DNA from: a virus | Taxonomy: Duplodnaviria > Caudoviricetes | Strand: one strand, 5' to 3' | IMG/VR virus record: IMGVR_UViG_3300000439_000004 | Span: 98,181 to 162,180 of that record | Length of the DNA: 64,000 nucleotides | Shown: positions 27,060-36,285 of the stretch, piece by piece | How the letters are laid out: each line of letters starts with the position of its first letter | Numbering within the stretch: position 1 is the first letter of the stretch | Notes under the pieces: generated by a model | What the model was told of the DNA's origin: nothing | The model's database searches: none | The model's input: only the letters and a program-made list of their open reading frames with translations | Program-made: the position numbers and the translations under genes

Positions 27060-27548
27060 ATGGCAGATTTATTAATGAAAATGCCGGTTCCTTATGAACC
27101 GAAGAGAGTTAACCGATTTATATTAAGATTTCCAAGTTCATTAGGAATCAATGAATGGTTTGTAACGTCTACATCAAGACCTAAAGCAAAAATTAATTCA
27201 GTTGAAATACCTTTTATCAATACATCAACATTTGTTGCTGGTAGATTTAATTGGGAAGAAATGCAAGTGACTTTCAAAGATCCAATCGGACCTTCTGCAG
27301 CTCAAGCGTTAATGGAATGGTTTCGTTTACATGCGGAATCAGTAACAGGTCGTATGGGTTATGCTGCTGGATATAAAAAAGATATTGAACTTGAAATGTT
27401 AGATCCAACAGGTGTTGTAGTTGAAAAATGGATACTTCAAGGTACATTTATGACTGGATTCGATGGTCAGAACTTAGATTACTCAAGAGACGAACTTGCA
27501 ACTATTCAAGTAGGTTTACGTCCGGATAGATGTATATTAGTTTATTAG
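27060..27548 (+). CDS. Tail tube protein (gp19-like)
   Basis: EPKRVNRFIL..AGRFNWEEM..YKKDIELEMLDPTGVVVEKWIL; follows the sheath. Confidence 0.85.
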   Translation: MADLLMKMPVPYEPKRVNRFILRFPSSLGINEWFVTSTSRPKAKINSVEIPFINTSTFVAGRFNWEEMQVTFKDPIGPSAAQALMEWFRLHAESVTGRMGYAAGYKKDIELEMLDPTGVVVEKWILQGTFMTGFDGQNLDYSRDELATIQVGLRPDRCILVY

Positions 27549-27622
27549 TTTTATACAAAAATATATCTATCGGGTTTACATTTTACTATTATTTCCATAT
27601 ATTTATCTAAAAAGGTAGATAT

Positions 27623-28528
27623 ATGGAAATTTTTATTTGTAAGATATGTAAAAAAGAGTTTAATAGTTTATTAGGTGTTTCAAATCATTCTAATAGATTT
27701 CATGGTATAAGTCCTAAAATGACTTATGTTGATTTTGTTTTAAATAATATAGAACCTAAATGTGAATGTGGTTGTGGTGAAAAAACAAAATTTTTAACTA
27801 TAAATAAAGGTTTTAGTAAGTTTATTTCCGGGCATAATAGTTCCACATCAAATAATAACTTTCATAAAAATCCTGAAAGTAAAATTAAATCAGCTAAGAC
27901 ACAATCTGAAAATTGGAGTAAAGGTATGTATCGTAGATGGTGGGAAGAGGATACTGAAGATACTAAACAAAAAATTGAAGGGATAAAAGAAAAATTAAGA
28001 AACGATAAAGTAAGAGGTAAAAAAATATCTGATAAATTATCAGGTGTACCTAAAACAGAAGAAAGTAAAATTAAAAATTCATTATCTCAAATTGAGAGAT
28101 ATAAAAATAATCCGCAATTAAAAATTGATGCGTCTAAAAGAAAATTAATTTGGATGAGAAATAATTCAAAAGTTAAAACATCTAAATTAGAAATTATTTT
28201 CTCTAAAATTTTAGATAATCTTGGTTTAATAAAAGATGTTGATTATATACATAATCATTTAATATATGAAATTAAAACTTTTTTTGATTTTTATTTTATC
28301 AATAAAAAAATATTAATTGAAGTTGATGGTGATTTTTATCATTGTAATCCAAATAGTAAATTTTCAATTCCAAAATACGAAATACAAAATAAAAACATAT
28401 CAAACGATAAAAGAAAAAATACATGGTGTAAAAATCATAATATTACATTACTTCGTTATTGGGAAAAAGATATAAACGAAAACCCTGAATATATAATAAA
28501 AGATTTAAAAGAAAAATTAGACATTTAA
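27623..28528 (+). CDS. Free-standing Vsr/DUF559-like endonuclease with C2H2 finger and NUMOD3
   Basis: CKIC..H..H, CECGCG, DFY..IEVDGDFYH..LLRYWE. Confidence 0.8.
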   Translation: MEIFICKICKKEFNSLLGVSNHSNRFHGISPKMTYVDFVLNNIEPKCECGCGEKTKFLTINKGFSKFISGHNSSTSNNNFHKNPESKIKSAKTQSENWSKGMYRRWWEEDTEDTKQKIEGIKEKLRNDKVRGKKISDKLSGVPKTEESKIKNSLSQIERYKNNPQLKIDASKRKLIWMRNNSKVKTSKLEIIFSKILDNLGLIKDVDYIHNHLIYEIKTFFDFYFINKKILIEVDGDFYHCNPNSKFSIPKYEIQNKNISNDKRKNTWCKNHNITLLRYWEKDINENPEYIIKDLKEKLDI

Positions 28529-28641: not shown

Positions 28642-29382
28642 ATGGAAGAATTAAGAATTGACCCAAGTATTATGTACGATGTCGTACCGTTACCTTCACA
28701 AGGTATTCATTATGAAAATAAGAAAAAAAGTGTAAGAGTTGCATATCTAACCGCAGCAGATGAAAACATTTTAATGTCACCAAATTTATTACAGAGTGAT
28801 ACTGTTGTAAATGAATTACTAAAAAGAAAAGTTTTAGATAGAGACTTAGATTTAGAAGAATTGGTTGATGAAGATAAACAAGCAATTTTATTATTTTTAA
28901 GAAACACTGCATTTGGTAGTGAATATAAAGTAAAATTAAATGATCCAAAGACAGATAAAGTTTTTGAAGCTGTTTTAGATGTATCCGTATTGAAAACTAA
29001 GGAATTAAATTTAGTTCCTGATGAAAAGGGTGAATTTGAATATTATTTACCAATATCAAAGAAAACTGTTAAGTTTAAATTCTTAAATAAAAAACAAGAA
29101 TTAGAATTAGATAAAATTAGAAATGGTGGTGGGGTTGTACCTATTAATACCAAGAAATTAGAATTTATGATTAAGTCAATTGATGGAGATAGAAATCAAA
29201 TGACAATATATCAATTTATTCAAATTATGCCAATCAAAGATTCACAAGACTTCAAGAAGTTTGTAGATGAAAATAAACCAGGTTTAGATTTAATTGTTGA
29301 AACAATAGCCCCATCAGGAGAAAAAGTCCCAGTTTATGTCGACTTTGGGGTAGAATTTTTTCGTCCTTTCTACGGAATATAA
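28642..29382 (+). CDS. Baseplate hub assembly/tail assembly chaperone (gp26-like)
   Basis: VPLPSQG..YLTAADENIL..AILLFLRNTAFG..EFFRP; lies between tube and tape measure. Confidence 0.65.
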   Translation: MEELRIDPSIMYDVVPLPSQGIHYENKKKSVRVAYLTAADENILMSPNLLQSDTVVNELLKRKVLDRDLDLEELVDEDKQAILLFLRNTAFGSEYKVKLNDPKTDKVFEAVLDVSVLKTKELNLVPDEKGEFEYYLPISKKTVKFKFLNKKQELELDKIRNGGGVVPINTKKLEFMIKSIDGDRNQMTIYQFIQIMPIKDSQDFKKFVDENKPGLDLIVETIAPSGEKVPVYVDFGVEFFRPFYGI

Positions 29383-29506
29383 GAAATATCAATTAACGAT
29401 TCAGAATTTTTTAATAAGACATGGTTATACTTATCATGATTTTTTAATAATACCAATTCATGAAAGAACCAATATTGTTAATCAATTATTGGATGATGAA
29501 AATTAA
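29354..29506 (+). CDS. ATG-less +1-frame ORF, probable frameshift extension of the chaperone
   Basis: NFFVLSTEYKKYQLTIQNFLIRHGYTYHDFLIIPIHERTNIVNQLLDDEN*; overlaps TTT TTT CGT. Confidence 0.55.
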   Translation, partial: NFFVLSTEYKKYQLTIQNFLIRHGYTYHDFLIIPIHERTNIVNQLLDDEN

Positions 29507-29536: not shown

Positions 29537-31513
29537 ATGGCAGATGATTTAAAATCAACGATTGAAAAAATTATTAAAAGTTCAAAAAATGCAGAAGATG
29601 CAACACAAAAAGTAATTTTACAAAAAAAGGCATATAATGCTGCAAATCCGAATAATACTGTAAAAACAGAATTAACGTATGAAGAAAATCAATTAATTGC
29701 TGAAAAACATTTAAAGACAAATGGTAATGTACAGAAAAGTCTTACAGATAGCATATCAAGTGCTTTTATTGACACAAAATCAAATGAATCAGGAAGGGTA
29801 AAGTTTAGTGATTTTACAAAAGGAATTTCAGATATTTCATCTGTTTTTAAAAATGCTCAAGGTATTACTGGATTAATAACAGGATTAGTAACAACAATTG
29901 CTTCAAAAGGTGGATCTCTTTTAATTGATTTGGCGAGAAATCAAACTGATTTGATAGGACAAATAAAAGGTTCAACAGGGTATATTGGTGAGTTTGGTGA
30001 TGATATGGTTGAAATGGTAAGTTCAACATTAGCGGCAAGTCAAGCTATTGGAGTGTCTAGTAGAGAAGTTATTAATGGTTTTGGTAAAATGGTTGAAAAT
30101 TCAGGAAAAGTAACATTATATTCAAAACAAACAATTGAAGAGGGTGTTAAAGCTTCGGCAGCTTTCATGAGAAGTAATACTGATTTATTGGAAAATGCTG
30201 AAAAATATAGAGATGTTGGTATATCATTATATGATGCGTCTAAGTCAATAACAGATATTGGTATGAAATCTGTAAATTTAGGTTTAAATGCAAAAAAAGT
30301 CACACAAACTATAACAGAAAATGTAACACTATTAAATGCAGTTGGTTTTAAAAATGGTATTGAAGGACTTTCTAAAATGGTACAACAAGCTCAAGCACTA
30401 AATTTTGATTTTAATAAAACGATTGATCTCGCAGATAAATTATTTGACCCAAGCGCTGCAATTGATATGACAGCAAGATTACAAGCAATTGGTGGTGCAA
30501 TGGGTAATTTAAATGACCCATTAAGAATGATGTACGATGCAACAAACAATGTTGAAGATTTACAAACATCAATTTTAGGTGCTGCAAAAAGTTTGGCCAC
30601 GTATAATACAGAACAAGGTAGATTTGAGGTAACCGGTATAAATTTAAGAAGAGCAAAAGAAATGTCTCAAGCATTGGGTATTTCAATGAATGATTTAACA
30701 AGTGCAGCAATAAAGGGTTCTGTTAGAATGGAGGCGATGTCCAAAATAAATATGTTTCCTAACCTTAAAGAAGATCAAAAAGAATTTGTTGCAAATCTTT
30801 CAACAATGAAAGATGGTAAAGTTGGTTTTGATATACCCGAAGGTATTGCAAAAAGAATATTTGGTGACAATGCAGAAGGTGGATTTAGATCTATGGAGGA
30901 AATGGGTGGTAATATGGATAAATTTATTGATATACAACAAAAAATCGCCAAAGAAAAACCGGAAGATATTGCTAGAGACCAATATAATGAAACAACAAAA
31001 ACAAATAATATATTAACCGCAATATGGTTAGAAGGTCAAAATAGAGCAAGGTATAGTGAAATAGGTAGGGGTGGAGTAAAACTACAAAGAACAGGAACAC
31101 AATTCATTACTAAAATTGCAGATAAAGATAAATATAAGGCCGAAGATGTTGGAAAAGATGTTGTTGTAGAAGGAGCAAAAGGATTGTATCATAAAATTTT
31201 AGAAACAATTGGTATTGAAAATAATAACACAACAATTCAAAAACAAACCGCTGGAAAAATTACCTCTGGTATTGAAAATAATAACACAACAATTCAAAAA
31301 CAAACCGCTGGAAAAATTACCTCAATGGAAAATTTAGGTAAAGAACAAACAAATACAAATAATAATAAAAATACAAATAATACCACACCACAAAATGAAC
31401 AAACAAAAGTTCATATAGAAATTAGAAATTTAGATCCAAATACGAAATTGACTGAAAGAAATAGTGCTAGATCATATACAAATCAGCCAGTAACTATTGT
31501 TGGTGCTAAGTAA
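29537..31513 (+). CDS. Tape measure-like protein
   Basis: A/G/S/K-rich helical ORF after the tube and chaperone genes. Confidence 0.65.
   Translation: MADDLKSTIEKIIKSSKNAEDATQKVILQKKAYNAANPNNTVKTELTYEENQLIAEKHLKTNGNVQKSLTDSISSAFIDTKSNESGRVKFSDFTKGISDISSVFKNAQGITGLITGLVTTIASKGGSLLIDLARNQTDLIGQIKGSTGYIGEFGDDMVEMVSSTLAASQAIGVSSREVINGFGKMVENSGKVTLYSKQTIEEGVKASAAFMRSNTDLLENAEKYRDVGISLYDASKSITDIGMKSVNLGLNAKKVTQTITENVTLLNAVGFKNGIEGLSKMVQQAQALNFDFNKTIDLADKLFDPSAAIDMTARLQAIGGAMGNLNDPLRMMYDATNNVEDLQTSILGAAKSLATYNTEQGRFEVTGINLRRAKEMSQALGISMNDLTSAAIKGSVRMEAMSKINMFPNLKEDQKEFVANLSTMKDGKVGFDIPEGIAKRIFGDNAEGGFRSMEEMGGNMDKFIDIQQKIAKEKPEDIARDQYNETTKTNNILTAIWLEGQNRARYSEIGRGGVKLQRTGTQFITKIADKDKYKAEDVGKDVVVEGAKGLYHKILETIGIENNNTTIQKQTAGKITSGIENNNTTIQKQTAGKITSMENLGKEQTNTNNNKNTNNTTPQNEQTKVHIEIRNLDPNTKLTERNSARSYTNQPVTIVGAK
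31210..31323. repeat. Perfect 57-bp in-frame tandem duplication
   Basis: GIENNNTTIQKQTAGKITS twice. Confidence 0.9.
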
Positions 31514-31551: not shown

Positions 31552-34500
31552 ATGCCAAGTTATTTAGATTTTAATTCAACAAAGTCTTTTAGAGATTATT
31601 TAATAAGTAAAACATTAAATCAACCTAACGGACCACAAACATTTACTAGTACAAATTATCCTGAACAAGGTACAAATGACTATTCTGATATATATCAAGG
31701 TACGGTAGAGGATGTTAGAACATTTGAATTAACACAATCTCAAAATGTTAATGTATATAAACCTACGACATACTTTATTGATGATACATTAAATACTTTA
31801 CCAAGGAAGGCAAACTTATCATTATACCCTTATTTCGTATCTAGTGATCATAATCTAATTGGTATTATGACAAGTGGTGATGATACGACTGAATCAGAAT
31901 TATATCGTTTTGCAGCACATTATATTAAAACAGATTCAAATGGACCTGTATTAGCTAGGGTCACACAAAATTTACAATCAGCCACAATTGGTAGATTTAG
32001 ATTGGCTGATGCTTTAAATGGTGATACTGCAACAGCATTAAATTTATTAACAGGTAGAGAACCTTTAATTGAACCTAATTATAAAGTTACTGTATCAAGT
32101 TCATTACTTGGTCAAGCTGTTGATTTTATTCAAACAGTTGCAGGTACACAATTACCATTTTCAACAATACCTGGTGATTATTTAACAGATCCAAGAAATC
32201 CAATTAATTTTAGACCAACACCAAGTACACAATTAGGTTCAATAGTACAAGATGTTACAGGGGCTATTGGTTCTTTAATTGGTATTCAAAGAAGACCAAA
32301 AACAACAAGAAAACCATCTGATTTATTAATTGAAAATACAAGTAATGGTCAATTAAATAGATTATATGATTTATTATCGTTTTCAAAATACGCACCAAAT
32401 TACACAACGACAGCAAGATCGCAAAATTCATCTAAATTATTTAATTTTATTGATAAATTCGCTCAGGGTGTAAAAAACATTTTAGGAACAGAAGCACCGG
32501 CAGGTGTGGCATATATTGGTGACGATAGATCAGATAATGTTATAAATGCAATGACAGACCAATTTCAAAGACCTGTTCATAGTACATATTATTTAGGTTT
32601 AAAATTTGATCCAATTCAAACAGACTATTTTGAAAAACCAAAAAATATAACAGAAGGTGGTGGTATTTCTGGTAAATTAACATGGTATGGTATTAACTCT
32701 ATAAAGAATAATAAATTAGGTGTAAACAATGTAAATTATACGAATTCACAAGAAAGTAAATTTACACCTACATTATCAACTAATACTACATTTAGAGAAG
32801 GTTCTATATTAGGTGTAACTCAAGATTTACTTAACACAATGCCACCAGGTGGTCAAGCACGTACCCATGTTGGTAATGTAATTGATCAAACAAGCAGAGT
32901 CTTCAAAGAAGGACAACAAATGTTATCAAGAGGTTCGGCTATTAAATACACAAATAAATTCACTGGAATTGAAACTGGTGTAGAATATTGTAGAGTTTGG
33001 ACTAAGGATAGACCATATTATACGATGAGTGATACCATGAAACGTACTGCAAATGTTAGAAAAATGGATAGTAGTGTTTTAGGTGGAAAAAGTCGTGTTT
33101 GGAATTTAAATTACGCACCAATGTCAAATGGTAACAAAGATTTTACAAATTCAACAAATATAACTAAAGCAGGTGCAAATAATAAATTCTATGCACCAAA
33201 TGAATTTTATGCCAAAAAATATATGTTTTCAATTGAAAATTTAGCATGGAAAACATCAAACACACCAGGTTTTACTGTTAGTGATTTACCATCATGTGAA
33301 AAAGGTAATAATGGTGGTAGAGTTATGTGGTTTCCACCATATGATTTAAAAGTACAAGAGTCCAATAATGCAAGATGGGAATCAAATACATTTATTGGAA
33401 GACCTGAACCAATTTATACATATCAAAATACAGAAAGAACAGGTACAATTAGTTTTAAAGTAGTTGTGGATCACCCAAGTATTTTAAATTTATTAGTTAG
33501 AGAGTATTTTAAAGGAATGTCAGATGAAGAAGCAGATAACTATATCAATGCTTTTTTTGCAGGATGTCAAGATTTAGATTTTTATGGTTTAATTCAAAGA
33601 TTTACAACATTAAATGGTGATGATTTAAAATTAGTCATGAATTATCTTAATGATAAAAATGCAAAACCCGAAGAAATTACTAAATATAAAACAGTTATTG
33701 ATGATACTGTTACACAAGATCCATCACAAGATCAAAAAAATACACAACCACCGGTTGATTTTAATTTTGTTTTAAATTTTGATAATGATGAACCTGATCA
33801 TGGTAGTCCTAGTATAATTTCGACACAAGATTATACTACAACATATAGTTTATATTCAGGTAAATCAAATACATATATTAATGGATTAACTAATGCCTTA
33901 AATACAACATTAATTACAAAGGATATAAATTTATTAACTGGTGGGAATACACCATTAACCACAGAAAATAAAAATACAATAATAAGTGGTTTAACAAAAT
34001 CTTTTAATGATTTACAAACAAATTATGGAAATTATACAACAAAATTAAATCAATTAAAATCTGATATATCAGGAAAAACAGGACAAAATATTAAAGTTAA
34101 AATTTTATCCTCTTGTTCTTCAGTTGCAACTGAAGCATATAATGCTGATTTATCATTAAGAAGAAGTCATAGTATAACCCAAGATATATTTAATAACATT
34201 AGTGTAGATGGTGGAACAACTAAACCAAATATTCAATGGGTAGATATTTCAAATGTAAATACAAATGGAGGACAAACGAATTTTACTGAAACATATAATT
34301 TAAAAGACTTTGGATGGAGTGATAATGATAACACAATAGAATTTGATTATACAAGTTATGGTGAAGGATATAAAGGACCTGAAGCAAATACAAATTGTAT
34401 TAATAAAGATTTTCTTAATCAAGATTTAAAAGTAGTATCACCAATTGCGTTTTTTTGTAGACAAGTAAGTATTGGTATTAAATATGATAAATTACCTGGT

Positions 34501-36285
34501 CCTCCACCGCCTCCACCAGTGGTATCACCAAAATATAAAGTTGTTGAAGATGGAAAACCAATATCAATACCCTCAAAAACAAAAAAGCCAACAATTGATG
34601 TTATGAAGAGGATTATAATGAAAACATTGACAGAATGTTATTATTTCAAACAATTGGAAGATACATCACCTGTTGCATTTTCATCATTAAGGGAAAAATT
34701 AAAATATTTCCATCCAGGTTTCCATTCAACAACTCCAGAAGGTTTAAATAGTAGATTAACATTTTTACATCAATGTATTAGACCCGGTGAGACATTACCA
34801 ATAAAAGGTCTATCAGATGTTAGTGATTTGCCGGCAAGAAATACAACATTTGGTCCTCCACCAATTTGTATTATTAGGATTGGGGATTTTTATCATTCTA
34901 AAATCATTATTGAAAATGTTAATATAACATATGAAGAAAATGGTGGGATTATATGGGATTTAAATCCAGAAGGTATTGGTGTCCAACCAATGATTGCAAG
35001 TGTTACATTACAGGTTAAATTTATTGGTGGACAAGGGTTAGAAAAACCAGTCGAAAGATTGCAAAACGCGTTAACATCTAATTTTTATGCAAATACTGAA
35101 ATGTATGATGAGAGATCCCAAGTTACAAATGAAACAATAGGTGGAATAGATAAAGATACATTTACAAAAGAATTTTTGGAAGGTTTAAAAAGAAGACCAT
35201 CAAATAATGCAAATCCTGTTACTAAAAGTACAAATAAAATTAGTACTGGTGAATATATTGGTTCAACAGATGGTACTAATTTAACTGAAACAAAAATAGT
35301 AAATGATTTATTTACAAATGTAACAAGTTATTTTTCAAATTATGAAATTTTATATAATATTTTATTAACCACGTATGGTCCTGAAATAATGCCTGTTTTA
35401 TTATCACCAAATTATAGAACAATAAAAAATTATGATGTATATACACCATCTGTTAATACTATAAATTTATTTGGACTTTATCCTACTGGAAGTGAATCTG
35501 ATGTGTTAATCAATAATTTGGTAGATTCGTTAAATAATGCGATAAATAATTCTAATGATTTATCTGCAATATTTGATTTTTCAAGTAATGCATTAAAAAA
35601 TAAATCTGATTTAATATTGGCATCAAATAATTTATTAAGACCATATTTATTAGGTATTATTAATACAAAAATACACACTAATTTAATTGATGATAAGAGT
35701 ACAAGTGAGTTTGAAACACTTAGAAATAATGTAATTACAACATTGGATAAATTAAATTATTTAATAACATATAGTGCTGATGCAAAAGTAAATGTAAATG
35801 GTAATGATGGTACGAAAGCAGTGTTTAGTGGTTTTTCAAATATAGATTTATATACTGAGATTGGTAAAGTTATTGATTATATAACCAATAATACAAATAA
35901 AATGTATAGTGGATTAGGTACATTGATAAATTATAGTAACATAGTTATTAATGATAGTGTTTTAATAACTATATTACCTGTTTTATTAAAAAATGAAAAA
36001 ACAAACATTTTAAATCTTTATAAATCAGCACCAAATACCTTTAGTCAAAAAGTAATTGATGATATTGAAGCTAATTTTAATGATTTCATTAAACTACAAC
36101 CAAAATCAACATCATTAAAATTTGATAAACCGGTGATTAGAACAAATAGTAAAGAATTAAAATATACATATACCGAATCACCAATAACAGATAGTGATGG
36201 TAATATGTTAAATGAAATTAAATTAATTAAATCAGATCAAACTGATGTAATTAATAATAAATTAAATTTTTATAGAAAAAAATAA
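31552..36285 (+). CDS. Large baseplate/tail protein with an embedded OmpA-like domain
   Basis: FIGRPEPIYTY, PPICIIRIGD tube-initiator-like motifs; YNADLSLRRS. Confidence 0.55.
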   Translation: MPSYLDFNSTKSFRDYLISKTLNQPNGPQTFTSTNYPEQGTNDYSDIYQGTVEDVRTFELTQSQNVNVYKPTTYFIDDTLNTLPRKANLSLYPYFVSSDHNLIGIMTSGDDTTESELYRFAAHYIKTDSNGPVLARVTQNLQSATIGRFRLADALNGDTATALNLLTGREPLIEPNYKVTVSSSLLGQAVDFIQTVAGTQLPFSTIPGDYLTDPRNPINFRPTPSTQLGSIVQDVTGAIGSLIGIQRRPKTTRKPSDLLIENTSNGQLNRLYDLLSFSKYAPNYTTTARSQNSSKLFNFIDKFAQGVKNILGTEAPAGVAYIGDDRSDNVINAMTDQFQRPVHSTYYLGLKFDPIQTDYFEKPKNITEGGGISGKLTWYGINSIKNNKLGVNNVNYTNSQESKFTPTLSTNTTFREGSILGVTQDLLNTMPPGGQARTHVGNVIDQTSRVFKEGQQMLSRGSAIKYTNKFTGIETGVEYCRVWTKDRPYYTMSDTMKRTANVRKMDSSVLGGKSRVWNLNYAPMSNGNKDFTNSTNITKAGANNKFYAPNEFYAKKYMFSIENLAWKTSNTPGFTVSDLPSCEKGNNGGRVMWFPPYDLKVQESNNARWESNTFIGRPEPIYTYQNTERTGTISFKVVVDHPSILNLLVREYFKGMSDEEADNYINAFFAGCQDLDFYGLIQRFTTLNGDDLKLVMNYLNDKNAKPEEITKYKTVIDDTVTQDPSQDQKNTQPPVDFNFVLNFDNDEPDHGSPSIISTQDYTTTYSLYSGKSNTYINGLTNALNTTLITKDINLLTGGNTPLTTENKNTIISGLTKSFNDLQTNYGNYTTKLNQLKSDISGKTGQNIKVKILSSCSSVATEAYNADLSLRRSHSITQDIFNNISVDGGTTKPNIQWVDISNVNTNGGQTNFTETYNLKDFGWSDNDNTIEFDYTSYGEGYKGPEANTNCINKDFLNQDLKVVSPIAFFCRQVSIGIKYDKLPGPPPPPPVVSPKYKVVEDGKPISIPSKTKKPTIDVMKRIIMKTLTECYYFKQLEDTSPVAFSSLREKLKYFHPGFHSTTPEGLNSRLTFLHQCIRPGETLPIKGLSDVSDLPARNTTFGPPPICIIRIGDFYHSKIIIENVNITYEENGGIIWDLNPEGIGVQPMIASVTLQVKFIGGQGLEKPVERLQNALTSNFYANTEMYDERSQVTNETIGGIDKDTFTKEFLEGLKRRPSNNANPVTKSTNKISTGEYIGSTDGTNLTETKIVNDLFTNVTSYFSNYEILYNILLTTYGPEIMPVLLSPNYRTIKNYDVYTPSVNTINLFGLYPTGSESDVLINNLVDSLNNAINNSNDLSAIFDFSSNALKNKSDLILASNNLLRPYLLGIINTKIHTNLIDDKSTSEFETLRNNVITTLDKLNYLITYSADAKVNVNGNDGTKAVFSGFSNIDLYTEIGKVIDYITNNTNKMYSGLGTLINYSNIVINDSVLITILPVLLKNEKTNILNLYKSAPNTFSQKVIDDIEANFNDFIKLQPKSTSLKFDKPVIRTNSKELKYTYTESPITDSDGNMLNEIKLIKSDQTDVINNKLNFYRKK

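Follow-up and report, generated by a model that had tools for sequence, protein, structure and literature searches.

Does the gene that precedes the presumed tape measure gene of a tailed virus encode one protein or two? We examined this question for ORF1 (open reading frame 1), a gene in a 64,000-nucleotide stretch of DNA (the window; positions 98,181 to 162,180 of IMG/VR record IMGVR_UViG_3300000439_000004, Duplodnaviria; Caudoviricetes) that belongs to a 162,180-bp virus contig record with 27.6% G+C and an estimated completeness of 52%. An earlier note, made from the letters of the window alone, had proposed that ribosomes shift by +1 or -2 near the end of this gene, at UUU_UUU_CGU, into a second frame that has no ATG. 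Comparison with relatives supports a conserved net +1 shift at TTT TTT CGN that joins the gene in the chaperone position to a start-less ORF, and we consider it very probable that this is a real, conserved and as yet unannotated programmed frameshift. Direct support comes from the conservation of the start-less +1 ORF and of the site, from the protein family of ORF1 and from the natural fused forms described below. To the more specific reading, that ribosomes shift by +1 at UUU_Y and so make gp26-like and gp51-like chaperone forms (after the proteins of phage T4) from one gene, we assign a probability of about three in four. The elements concerned are as follows.

28642..29382, + strand: ORF1, frame 1, the short product of 246 amino acids (aa), a gp26-like hub / tape-measure assembly chaperone by its matches to phrog_150 (E 2.8e-8) and PF12322 (E 5.8e-4, below the cut-off)
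29347..29350, + strand: GGGG, a Shine-Dalgarno-like run and candidate stimulator, 5 nucleotides (nt) upstream of the first UUU and 8 nt from the second
29356..29362, + strand: putative shift site UUU_UUU_C, with TTT TTT followed by CGN in 23/23 unique close relatives
29363..29506 (open from 29354), + strand: ORF2, in the +1 frame, which would add 47 residues to give a long product of 287 aa; a predicted gp51 C-terminal-like three-helix module, recognised by its conserved peptide in relatives, its profile and its predicted helices

The end of ORF1 and the proposed shift

ORF1 ends in GTA GAA TTT TTT CGT CCT TTC TAC GGA ATA TAA, with the TAA at 29380-29382. In the +1 frame, a TAG at 29351-29353 is followed by an open stretch from 29354 to 29503 (its TAA at 29504-29506), and these 50 sense codons include no ATG or GTG and a single TTG close to their end. 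Only 30 bases separate the stop of this frame from the next gene, which starts at 29537. The TAG at 29351-29353 and the TAA at 29380-29382 confine any shift to 29354-29382; on the sequence of the gene end, the TAG, the 50 codons without ATG and these limits, the earlier note was accurate. A single four-letter step at TTTC yields, by conceptual translation, a 287-residue product containing ..DFGVEFFVLSTEYKKYQ.., which includes the peptide ..VEFFVLSTEYK that had been predicted for a +1 shift.

In the mechanism that we propose, most ribosomes would stop at the TAA at 29380 and release a 246-residue protein corresponding to T4 gp26. Some would slip one base forward while tRNA-Phe holds a UUU within 29356-29361, the tRNA re-pairing on UUC (or UUU), and reading would resume at GUC 29363 to give the 287-residue protein, whose extra three-helix C-terminal module would correspond to the C-terminal domain of T4 gp51. 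The pair would act like gpG and gpGT of phage lambda, as non-structural chaperones of the tape measure and of hub assembly, and the ratio of short to long form would be set by the frequency of the shift.

Conservation of the +1 frame

Relatives were collected by a pattern scan of IMG/VR with three ORF1 proteins, and the best 80 of the 321 relatives were combined with the window and two GenBank records into a set of 83 sources, 4 of which run off their locus. Each of the 79 evaluable sources has a +1 frame that continues uninterrupted through the ORF1 stop, and the peptide that it encodes is recognisably conserved. Five of five cultured phages (Flavobacterium phage immuto, Bacillus SP-15, Bacillus vB_BceM-HSE3, Listeria LIS04 and Streptococcus GXN1) have this arrangement in common, and an equivalent arrangement of ORF1 and a +1 ORF2 is present in Microcystis phage Mel-JY01 and in a 484-kb uncultured phage. 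A hold-out set was drawn from bacterial and archaeal genome bins (21 loci, 2 of them partial), and here 18 of the 19 evaluable loci have their ORF2 in the +1 frame. Only L097, a contig of 1.1 kb with eight T's, departs from this and has its conserved ORF2 in another frame. In the first set, L029 is a divergent member; its ORF1 ends without the FF motif, but its +1 ORF of 58 codons includes a motif similar to M-x-I-R-D-R-K-F-Y.

An assembly error, or a recent homopolymer frameshift mutation that split one gene into two, might be suspected from the position of the break in a run of six T's and from the short contig L097. However, the same frame relation recurs in 79/79, 5/5 and 18/19 independent assemblies, finished phage genomes included, and the zero-frame tail RPFYG(I/L/V) and the stop that follows it are themselves kept in 22 of the 23 unique close relatives (RAFYGL in L022). 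We therefore regard such an error as practically negligible. The changes in the RPFYG tail within the window clade are synonymous in frame 0; this conserved tail may reflect a role of the C-terminus of the short form.

The +1 frame also behaves as a coding frame. Past the ORF1 stop of 69 unique complete loci, it runs for 39 to 89 codons (median 67), against 1 to 75 (median 10) for the -1 frame; in 67 of these loci +1 extends further than -1. Mean pairwise differences over the 34 codons past the ORF1 stop in the 23 unique close relatives are 0.394, 0.277 and 0.543 at codon positions 1, 2 and 3, respectively; differences are most frequent at position 3 and least frequent at position 2, and therefore it appears that the +1 frame is translated. 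ORF2 encodes a conserved domain of about 45 residues, and a profile of 65 ORF2 peptides (A2) matched 1496 of 1.84 billion cluster representatives at E<=0.001 and 436 at E<=1e-10.

Between the opening of the +1 frame and the eighth codon past the site, ATG is absent from 62 of 72 unique sequences, and in 24 of the 72 ATG, GTG and TTG are all absent; in many of the unique sequences the frame opens just 3 codons ahead of the site. The +1 peptide is already conserved within the overlap, before the ORF1 stop is reached, starting from FF-V-L-S-T-E-Y-K in the window clade and FF-G-L-T-P-E-Y-K in the far clade. Behind F-F-W-P, the zero-frame tails of the far clade differ in both length and sequence, whereas the +1 reading is conserved. 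Lambda-type G/GT pairs are recognised by a second, overlapping, start-less ORF kept among relatives, and such an ORF is found here.

No joined coding sequence (CDS) is annotated in the GenBank records examined (SP-15, HSE3, LIS04, GXN1, immuto, Mel-JY01, S-SM2 and P-SSM2), and several records of cultured relatives have a small 'hypothetical protein' or nothing at ORF2. The long product is missing from all of these records, and since several of the phages are in culture the claim is directly testable. Our literature search, with subscription papers and supplements outside it, found no paper that describes frameshifting in a member of the gp26/gp51 family, and the words frameshift, chaperone and tape measure are absent from the SP-15 genome paper.

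Natural fusions and called small proteins

The 150 best matches to the ORF2 profile comprise 140 proteins of 56-132 aa, in which ORF2 was called alone, one 171-aa fragment and nine fusions of 293-318 aa. In these nine, the ORF2 domain stands C-terminal to an ORF1-type part in a single reading frame, with the junctions SIFGLS, DIFNIRP, NVFGISS, SMLDLPP, DIFGFSP, SILGLEP, SFFGITP, DFFGMDG and VFFNLDE. Several of the junctions are impossible as T-runs in the DNA, and the fusions are therefore true in-frame genes rather than homopolymer errors. They are collinear with the predicted transframe product, and the alignment has no gap at the junction. The fusions were found only among distant members of the family; a word search found no in-frame fused close relative of the window's own ORF2.

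The many called proteins of 56-132 aa could also indicate that ORF2 is a separate small gene, translated from a rare start or by ribosomes that re-initiate past the ORF1 stop, for instance. Small CDSs are annotated at this place in P-SSM2, Mel-JY01, immuto, SP-15 and HSE3, and relative L002 has an ATG five codons ahead of the site. However, a third of the unique sequences offer none of the three start codons, the frame often opens only 3 codons before the site, and the conservation of the +1 peptide already within the overlap (FF-G-L or FF-V-L) and the collinear fusions likewise argue against a separate gene. In our reading, the called starts are mostly GTG or TTG codons generated by the Gly-Val codons of ORF1. 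A separate gene is thus a very unlikely explanation; the earlier note had offered independent starts in homologues as a means of refuting the shift, and the starts found do not do so.

The shift site

The 23 unique close relatives share the consensus GGG GTN GAN TTT TTT CGN CCY. TTT TTT is invariant among them and is always followed by CGN, although CGN makes up only 19 of the 203 Arg codons elsewhere in the same ORF1s; TTT TTT, CGN and the preceding GGG, each 23/23, are all constrained at synonymous sites. Most far relatives have TTT TTT TGG CCT or TTT TTT TAC CCT. Variants are TTC TTT TGG (L030, L031), TTT CTT TGG (L043, immuto), AAC TTT CTA (L002), TTC TTT CGT (HSE3, GXN1), TTT TTT CAC (SP-15) and TTT TTT AGT (LIS04). 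What these sites share is a (U/C)UU with U or C as the next base, LIS04 being a partial exception, and because of it the P-site tRNA-Phe or tRNA-Leu can re-pair by +1 on UUU or UUC. Even relatives with just 3-4 T's permit such re-pairing of tRNA-Phe, or of tRNA-Leu on CUU. The window itself has a P-site UUU followed by U or C, as do UUU_Y shift-prone sites, and in bacteria UUU_Ynn has been singled out as a sequence on which +1 shifts are especially likely (PMC5009743). The zero frame reads UUU_UUU_C, with ORF2 in +1, and no X_XXY_YYZ heptamer for a -1 shift stands in its phase.

The identical frame would be reached if ribosomes shifted by -2 on the U run, and runs of six or seven U's would let tRNA-Phe re-pair two bases back, giving a long form with one extra Phe (..EFFFVLS..). 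On TTT CTT TGG, TTC TTT TGG, TTC TTT CGT and AAC TTT CTA, however, clean re-pairing is possible for +1 but not for -2. The natural fusions have two hydrophobic residues at the junction and not three, which is a weak argument, being a difference of a single residue in a linker. Slippage of RNA polymerase on T6 is the other process to consider; part of the mRNAs would then be one U short and have the fused protein in a single frame. The run is longer than coding needs, T6 in 23/23 close relatives and T7 in most far ones, which is in its favor. However, seven relatives with 3-4 T's (L002, L030, L031, L043, immuto, HSE3 and GXN1) keep the arrangement, and slippage-prone runs in bacteria are usually 8-9 nt or longer. 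Runs of only three or four T's argue against both transcriptional slippage and a -2 shift as the general mechanism, and we consider each of the two improbable.

Candidate stimulators

Upstream of the site, the Gly codon at the G run is GGG in 23/23 unique close relatives, compared to 23 of the 214 Gly codons elsewhere in those ORF1s. A GGG within 15 nt upstream is present in 23/23 close and 30/51 far relatives, against 3.1% and 4.5% of background windows. The G run may be a Shine-Dalgarno-type stimulator like that of prfB, a candidate whose spacing differs from that in prfB. One relative (L108, 248 kb) was binned with a Flavobacteriaceae genome; Flavobacteriaceae make little use of Shine-Dalgarno-like elements.

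Downstream of the site, six of 49 far relatives (L045, L048, L051, L075, L079 and L080) have a perfect 6-bp GC hairpin that lies 6 nt beyond the first A-site base and has the ORF1 stop in its 9-nt loop. Its arms occur as GCCGCC/GGCGGC, GCGGGC/GCCCGC and GCCGGT/ACCGGC, compensating changes that are kept despite altering the +1 protein. Control counts were 0-2 for slid registers and, for shuffled arms, 1.63 on average with a maximum of 5. This hairpin is probably a lineage-specific stimulator.

Relationship to T4 gp26 and gp51

ORF1 aligns with phrog_150 ('baseplate hub') over residues 16-241, on profile positions 18-233 of 282 (E 2.8e-8). Against PF12322 it scores 20.0 bits with a cut-off of 24.5 (E 5.8e-4); the same profile matches 62 of the 65 members of our family alignment (A3), at best with E 4.7e-22, and it matches T4 gp26 (208 aa) with E 8.8e-64 and T4 gp51 (249 aa) with E 3.9e-52. 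By these profile matches ORF1 is a member of the T4 gp26/gp51 hub-assembly-chaperone family. The name of chaperone given in the earlier note is therefore upheld through this family, but not through lambda gpG: ORF1 is not a recognisable gpG homologue, and no sequence homology between the window chaperone and lambda gpG-type families was found.

The short forms of the family end just past a G-h-x-x-F-F motif: ..GLKEFFEL* in T4 gp26, ..FGVEFFRPFYGI* in the window, ..GLAGFFA* in S-SM2 and ..GLQSFFV* in P-SSM2. The C-terminal G-V-E-F-F of ORF1 aligns with G-L-K-E-F-F at the end of T4 gp26. The end positions on the 282-position phrog_150 profile separate short from long forms as follows.

T4 gp26: 235
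Window ORF1: 233
T4 gp51: 280
Window transframe product: 269
Natural fusions: P0111, 273; P0023, 277

A third fusion, P0141, covers profile positions 19-118 only. When the family including long forms was compared with 28 gp51 homologues by hhalign, the two aligned end to end with a probability of 85.5% (E 5.7e-6), and the ORF2 profile matched the small 'gp51' ORF of P-SSM2 with E 1.8e-4.

Structure prediction points the same way. The AlphaFold model of the transframe protein has a mean predicted local distance difference test score (pLDDT) of 93.1 and a predicted template modeling score (pTM) of 0.88, and within ORF2 it has predicted helices at 244-259, 264-269 and 272-286 with pLDDT 79-88. 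The C-terminal helices in the models are 16, 6 and 15 residues long in the transframe protein and 14, 5 and 16 in a gp51-type protein. In the ESM Atlas, the nearest named cluster (score 0.89) has Gp51_C in 25% of its members. A fold search of BFVD with the transframe model returned 68 viral predicted structures at E<=0.001, under names such as baseplate hub subunit and assembly protein or chaperone, including 'baseplate hub subunit' of SP-15 and 'baseplate hub assembly protein, T4-like'. We think it probable, a little less so than the shift mechanism itself, that ORF2 is equivalent to the C-terminal domain of gp51 (Gp51_C, PF28602).

Foldseek against the Protein Data Bank (PDB) gave no solved structure at E<=0.001, and hmmsearch of PDB sequences with the family profile gave zinc-finger noise only and no chaperone. 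DUF6760 was considered for ORF2 alone and rejected, as it matches just 13 of the 65 members and does so weakly, with E 1.5e-4 at best and scores under the cut-off; the family has no match within the phage's own genome, our literature search found no mention of DUF6760, and no PHROG match to ORF2 alone stood out. Many family members, T4 gp26 and gp51 among them, have two Cys pairs in a zinc-ribbon pattern (CPxC ... CxxC). In the window clade all four Cys residues are lost (D-P-K-T ... P-S-G-E) and the fold is kept.

Results that weigh against a ribosomal +1 shift and a gp51-like module

A number of results count against the preferred reading, that of a ribosomal +1 shift at UUU_Y that would produce gp26-like and gp51-like forms. 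Taken alone, the open +1 frame is ordinary: 27 of the 107 long ORFs of the genome have at least 41 open +1 codons beyond their stop, for the most part because that frame holds the next gene. As a statistical oddity by itself we accordingly rejected it. It is the comparison with relatives that lifts the frame above chance, and the case, made from sequences throughout, rests on that comparison. From the same material we infer that slippage would be ribosomal and not transcriptional, and +1 and not -2, and likewise what the product ratio and the chaperone function would be.

At the site, LIS04 has UUU_UUU_A, on which +1 re-pairing is possible at the first UUU only. Downstream RNA structure was not detected in the window clade (mean z +0.23, with 0/23 below -2), and the window itself has z +0.95 and no Rfam match. 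The A-site codon gives little reason for a pause: CGT occurs 5.06 times per 1000 codons genome-wide, the +1 codon GTC only 1.92 times, and the 22 tRNA genes of the phage include tRNA-Arg(ACG) as well as tRNA-Phe(GAA). In place of CGN, relatives use UGG, UAC, CAC, AGU or CUA. CGN codons account for 9.4% of Arg codons in the ORF1s of the close clade and for 19% genome-wide. Judged on codon usage and tRNA genes, the idea of a 'hungry' or rare A-site codon appears weak.

The link between ORF2 and Gp51_C is faint in direct comparisons. In plain HMMER searches, just 2 of 92 gp51 homologues outscored all 1932 decoys, a comparison of the ORF2 profile with only the gp51 family gave E 0.031 with a probability of 1.6%, and adding ORF2 raised the phrog_150 score by 2.3 bits only. 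Structural matches to known tail chaperones among the 48,161 chains searched with VIA-align are weak as well: YqbN (3klu) aligned over 84 residues with Z 5.8 and a root-mean-square deviation (rmsd) of 3.9, and the HK97 chaperone (2ob9) over 92 residues with Z 4.9 and rmsd 4.5, both under the level of Z 8 below which chance matches are common.

Comparison with known systems

In phage lambda, gpG and gpGT likewise precede the tape measure, as a short and a C-terminally extended product of overlapping frames with a start-less second ORF. The window differs in its net +1 shift on UUU_UUU_C, compared to the -1 shift on X_XXY_YYZ of the lambda type. The tail assembly chaperone frameshift is a conserved one (Xu, Hendrix and Duda 2004, as described in PMC5009743), and the G-T frameshift is described as conserved in long-tailed phages 'except T4' (PMC5009743). 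T4 gp26 and gp51 are listed as hub assembly chaperones, gp51 being absent from the particle (PMC3004832). They share the PF12322 family with ORF1, which ends at the gp26 profile position and motif, and the long form would reach the gp51-specific C-terminal part. However, T4 has two separate, divergently transcribed genes without recoding, with gene 25 directly after gene 26, whereas the window would have one gene and a +1 shift, located between the tube gene and the presumed tape measure gene and not in a hub cluster.

Cyanophages S-SM2 and P-SSM2 have the same family, the same two-frame layout before a large protein and the same junction letters, TTTTTTCG. The gp26 gene of S-SM2 ends in GGT TTT TTC GCA TAG, with an ORF2 in the -1 frame that runs 61 codons past the stop; that of P-SSM2 ends in AGT TTT TTC GTA TAA, with a -1 ORF2 of 58 codons past the stop that is annotated as a small ORF, 'gp51'. 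In these two cyanophage genomes the letters read as the canonical heptamer U_UUU_UUC for -1, whereas in the window they read as UUU_UUU_C for +1.

Our comparison places a conserved frameshift in the family of T4 gp26 and gp51, which has been thought the exception to G/GT, and this suggests that the two T4 genes are the split form of a G/GT pair. We lean, with somewhat more reserve than for the gp51 equivalence, toward the broader view that T4-type tails have their missing G/GT system in the gp26/gp51 family, which would have begun as one gene with two frames. On that view, a U6C motif would have been used both ways, for -1 as U_UUU_UUC in cyanophages and for +1 as UUU_UUU_C or UUU_UUU_U; some lineages would have fused the frames, and T4 would have split them into the paralogues 26 (the G form) and 51 (the GT form). 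If true, this would explain the long-noted 'except T4' and give a role to two T4 proteins of unclear function. The large natural set of +1 UUU_Y sites, together with the -1 counterpart in cyanophages, is also useful for studying the direction and frequency of slippage.

Shifts by +1 have been described for tail chaperone genes before, in the haloarchaeal myovirus HSTV-2 (PMC5009743) and in 350 forward (+1) cases of the SEA-PHAGES set (PMC10274946); as described, these share with the window a chaperone gene that precedes the tape measure and is read with a +1 shift. The earlier note had drawn its parallel with influenza PA-X, UCC_UUU_CGU. The window shares UUU_CGU with that site but has GAA UUU in front and no E-site UCC, and its relatives depart from CGN with the codons given above. 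The bacterial shift-prone tetranucleotide UUU_Y, as described in PMC5009743, is a better precedent. Bacterial UUU_Ynn sites (E. coli argI; yopN-tyeA) share a P-site UUU followed by a pyrimidine, and far relatives of the window carry exactly UUU_UGG, which is the site proposed for Yersinia yopN-tyeA, where mutagenesis is reported not to have confirmed it (PMC3789692). Unlike these, the shift in the window family would be a conserved part of phage gene expression. The resemblance to the +1 shift of prfB is partial and only a candidate one: a G run stands upstream at the two spacings listed above, but the A-site codon is CGU and not a stop, and the ORF1 stop comes six codons downstream.

Gene neighborhood

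The genes around ORF1 and ORF2 are listed here.

27060..27548, + strand: tail tube gene (T4 gp19-like), the neighbor upstream of ORF1; phrog_4542 'tail tube protein' E 6.9e-24, PF06841 E 2.4e-5 (under its cut-off)
27623-28528: homing endonuclease gene between the tube gene and ORF1; phrog_9084 / phrog_559, with a zinc-finger N-terminus
29537..31513, + strand: gene of 658 aa, presumed tape measure by position only; a tape-measure annotation stands at the equivalent place in cultured relatives
31552-36285: gene of 1577 aa, next after the 658-aa gene

Tube homologues lie directly upstream of ORF1 in 62 unique related loci, and the annotated order in cultured relatives is sheath, tube, ORF1-equivalent and tape measure. 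The gp26/gp51 homologues of Acinetobacter phages Berthold (MN709128) and Lazarus (MN782535) are annotated 'tape measure protein assembly chaperone', so that the chaperone idea is already present in some annotations, without any frameshift. Position, expression strategy and these labels together suggest a G/GT-like chaperone function.

The endonuclease gene is an insertion private to this genome or to a few, because in most relatives only about 100-150 nt separate the end of the tube gene from ORF1. The tube gene itself stops at a TAG followed by 41 open codons (27546-27671) that run into the inserted endonuclease gene. One of the 22 tRNA genes has the anticodon CUA (tRNA-Pyl according to ARAGORN; G000:C1 35257-35328, minus strand, outside the window) and resembles an amber suppressor. 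There is no sign of general TAG recoding, as TAG ends 6 of the 107 long ORFs and read-through would add 1-41 codons. A read-through form of the tube protein may be conceivable with the suppressor-like tRNA; the open codons could equally be due to chance.

The earlier note had also called the virus a jumbo myovirus. This is plausible, with relatives on contigs of 248-298 kb, but the record itself has only its 162,180 bp at 52% estimated completeness. Similarly, the tape measure that it placed downstream of ORF2 agrees with the position of the 658-aa gene and with the annotations of cultured relatives, but not with any homology of the protein, which has no Pfam or PHROG match and resembles neither T4 gp29 nor the tape measure protein of immuto. 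The protein has 466 homologues, all unnamed. At about 31190-31310 it contains a perfect tandem repeat of 19 residues (GIENNNTTIQKQTAGKITS, twice), and its closest relative, P0153 (92% identity), is exactly 19 residues shorter, at 639 aa. Such a change in the copy number of the repeat would fit a length-ruler protein.

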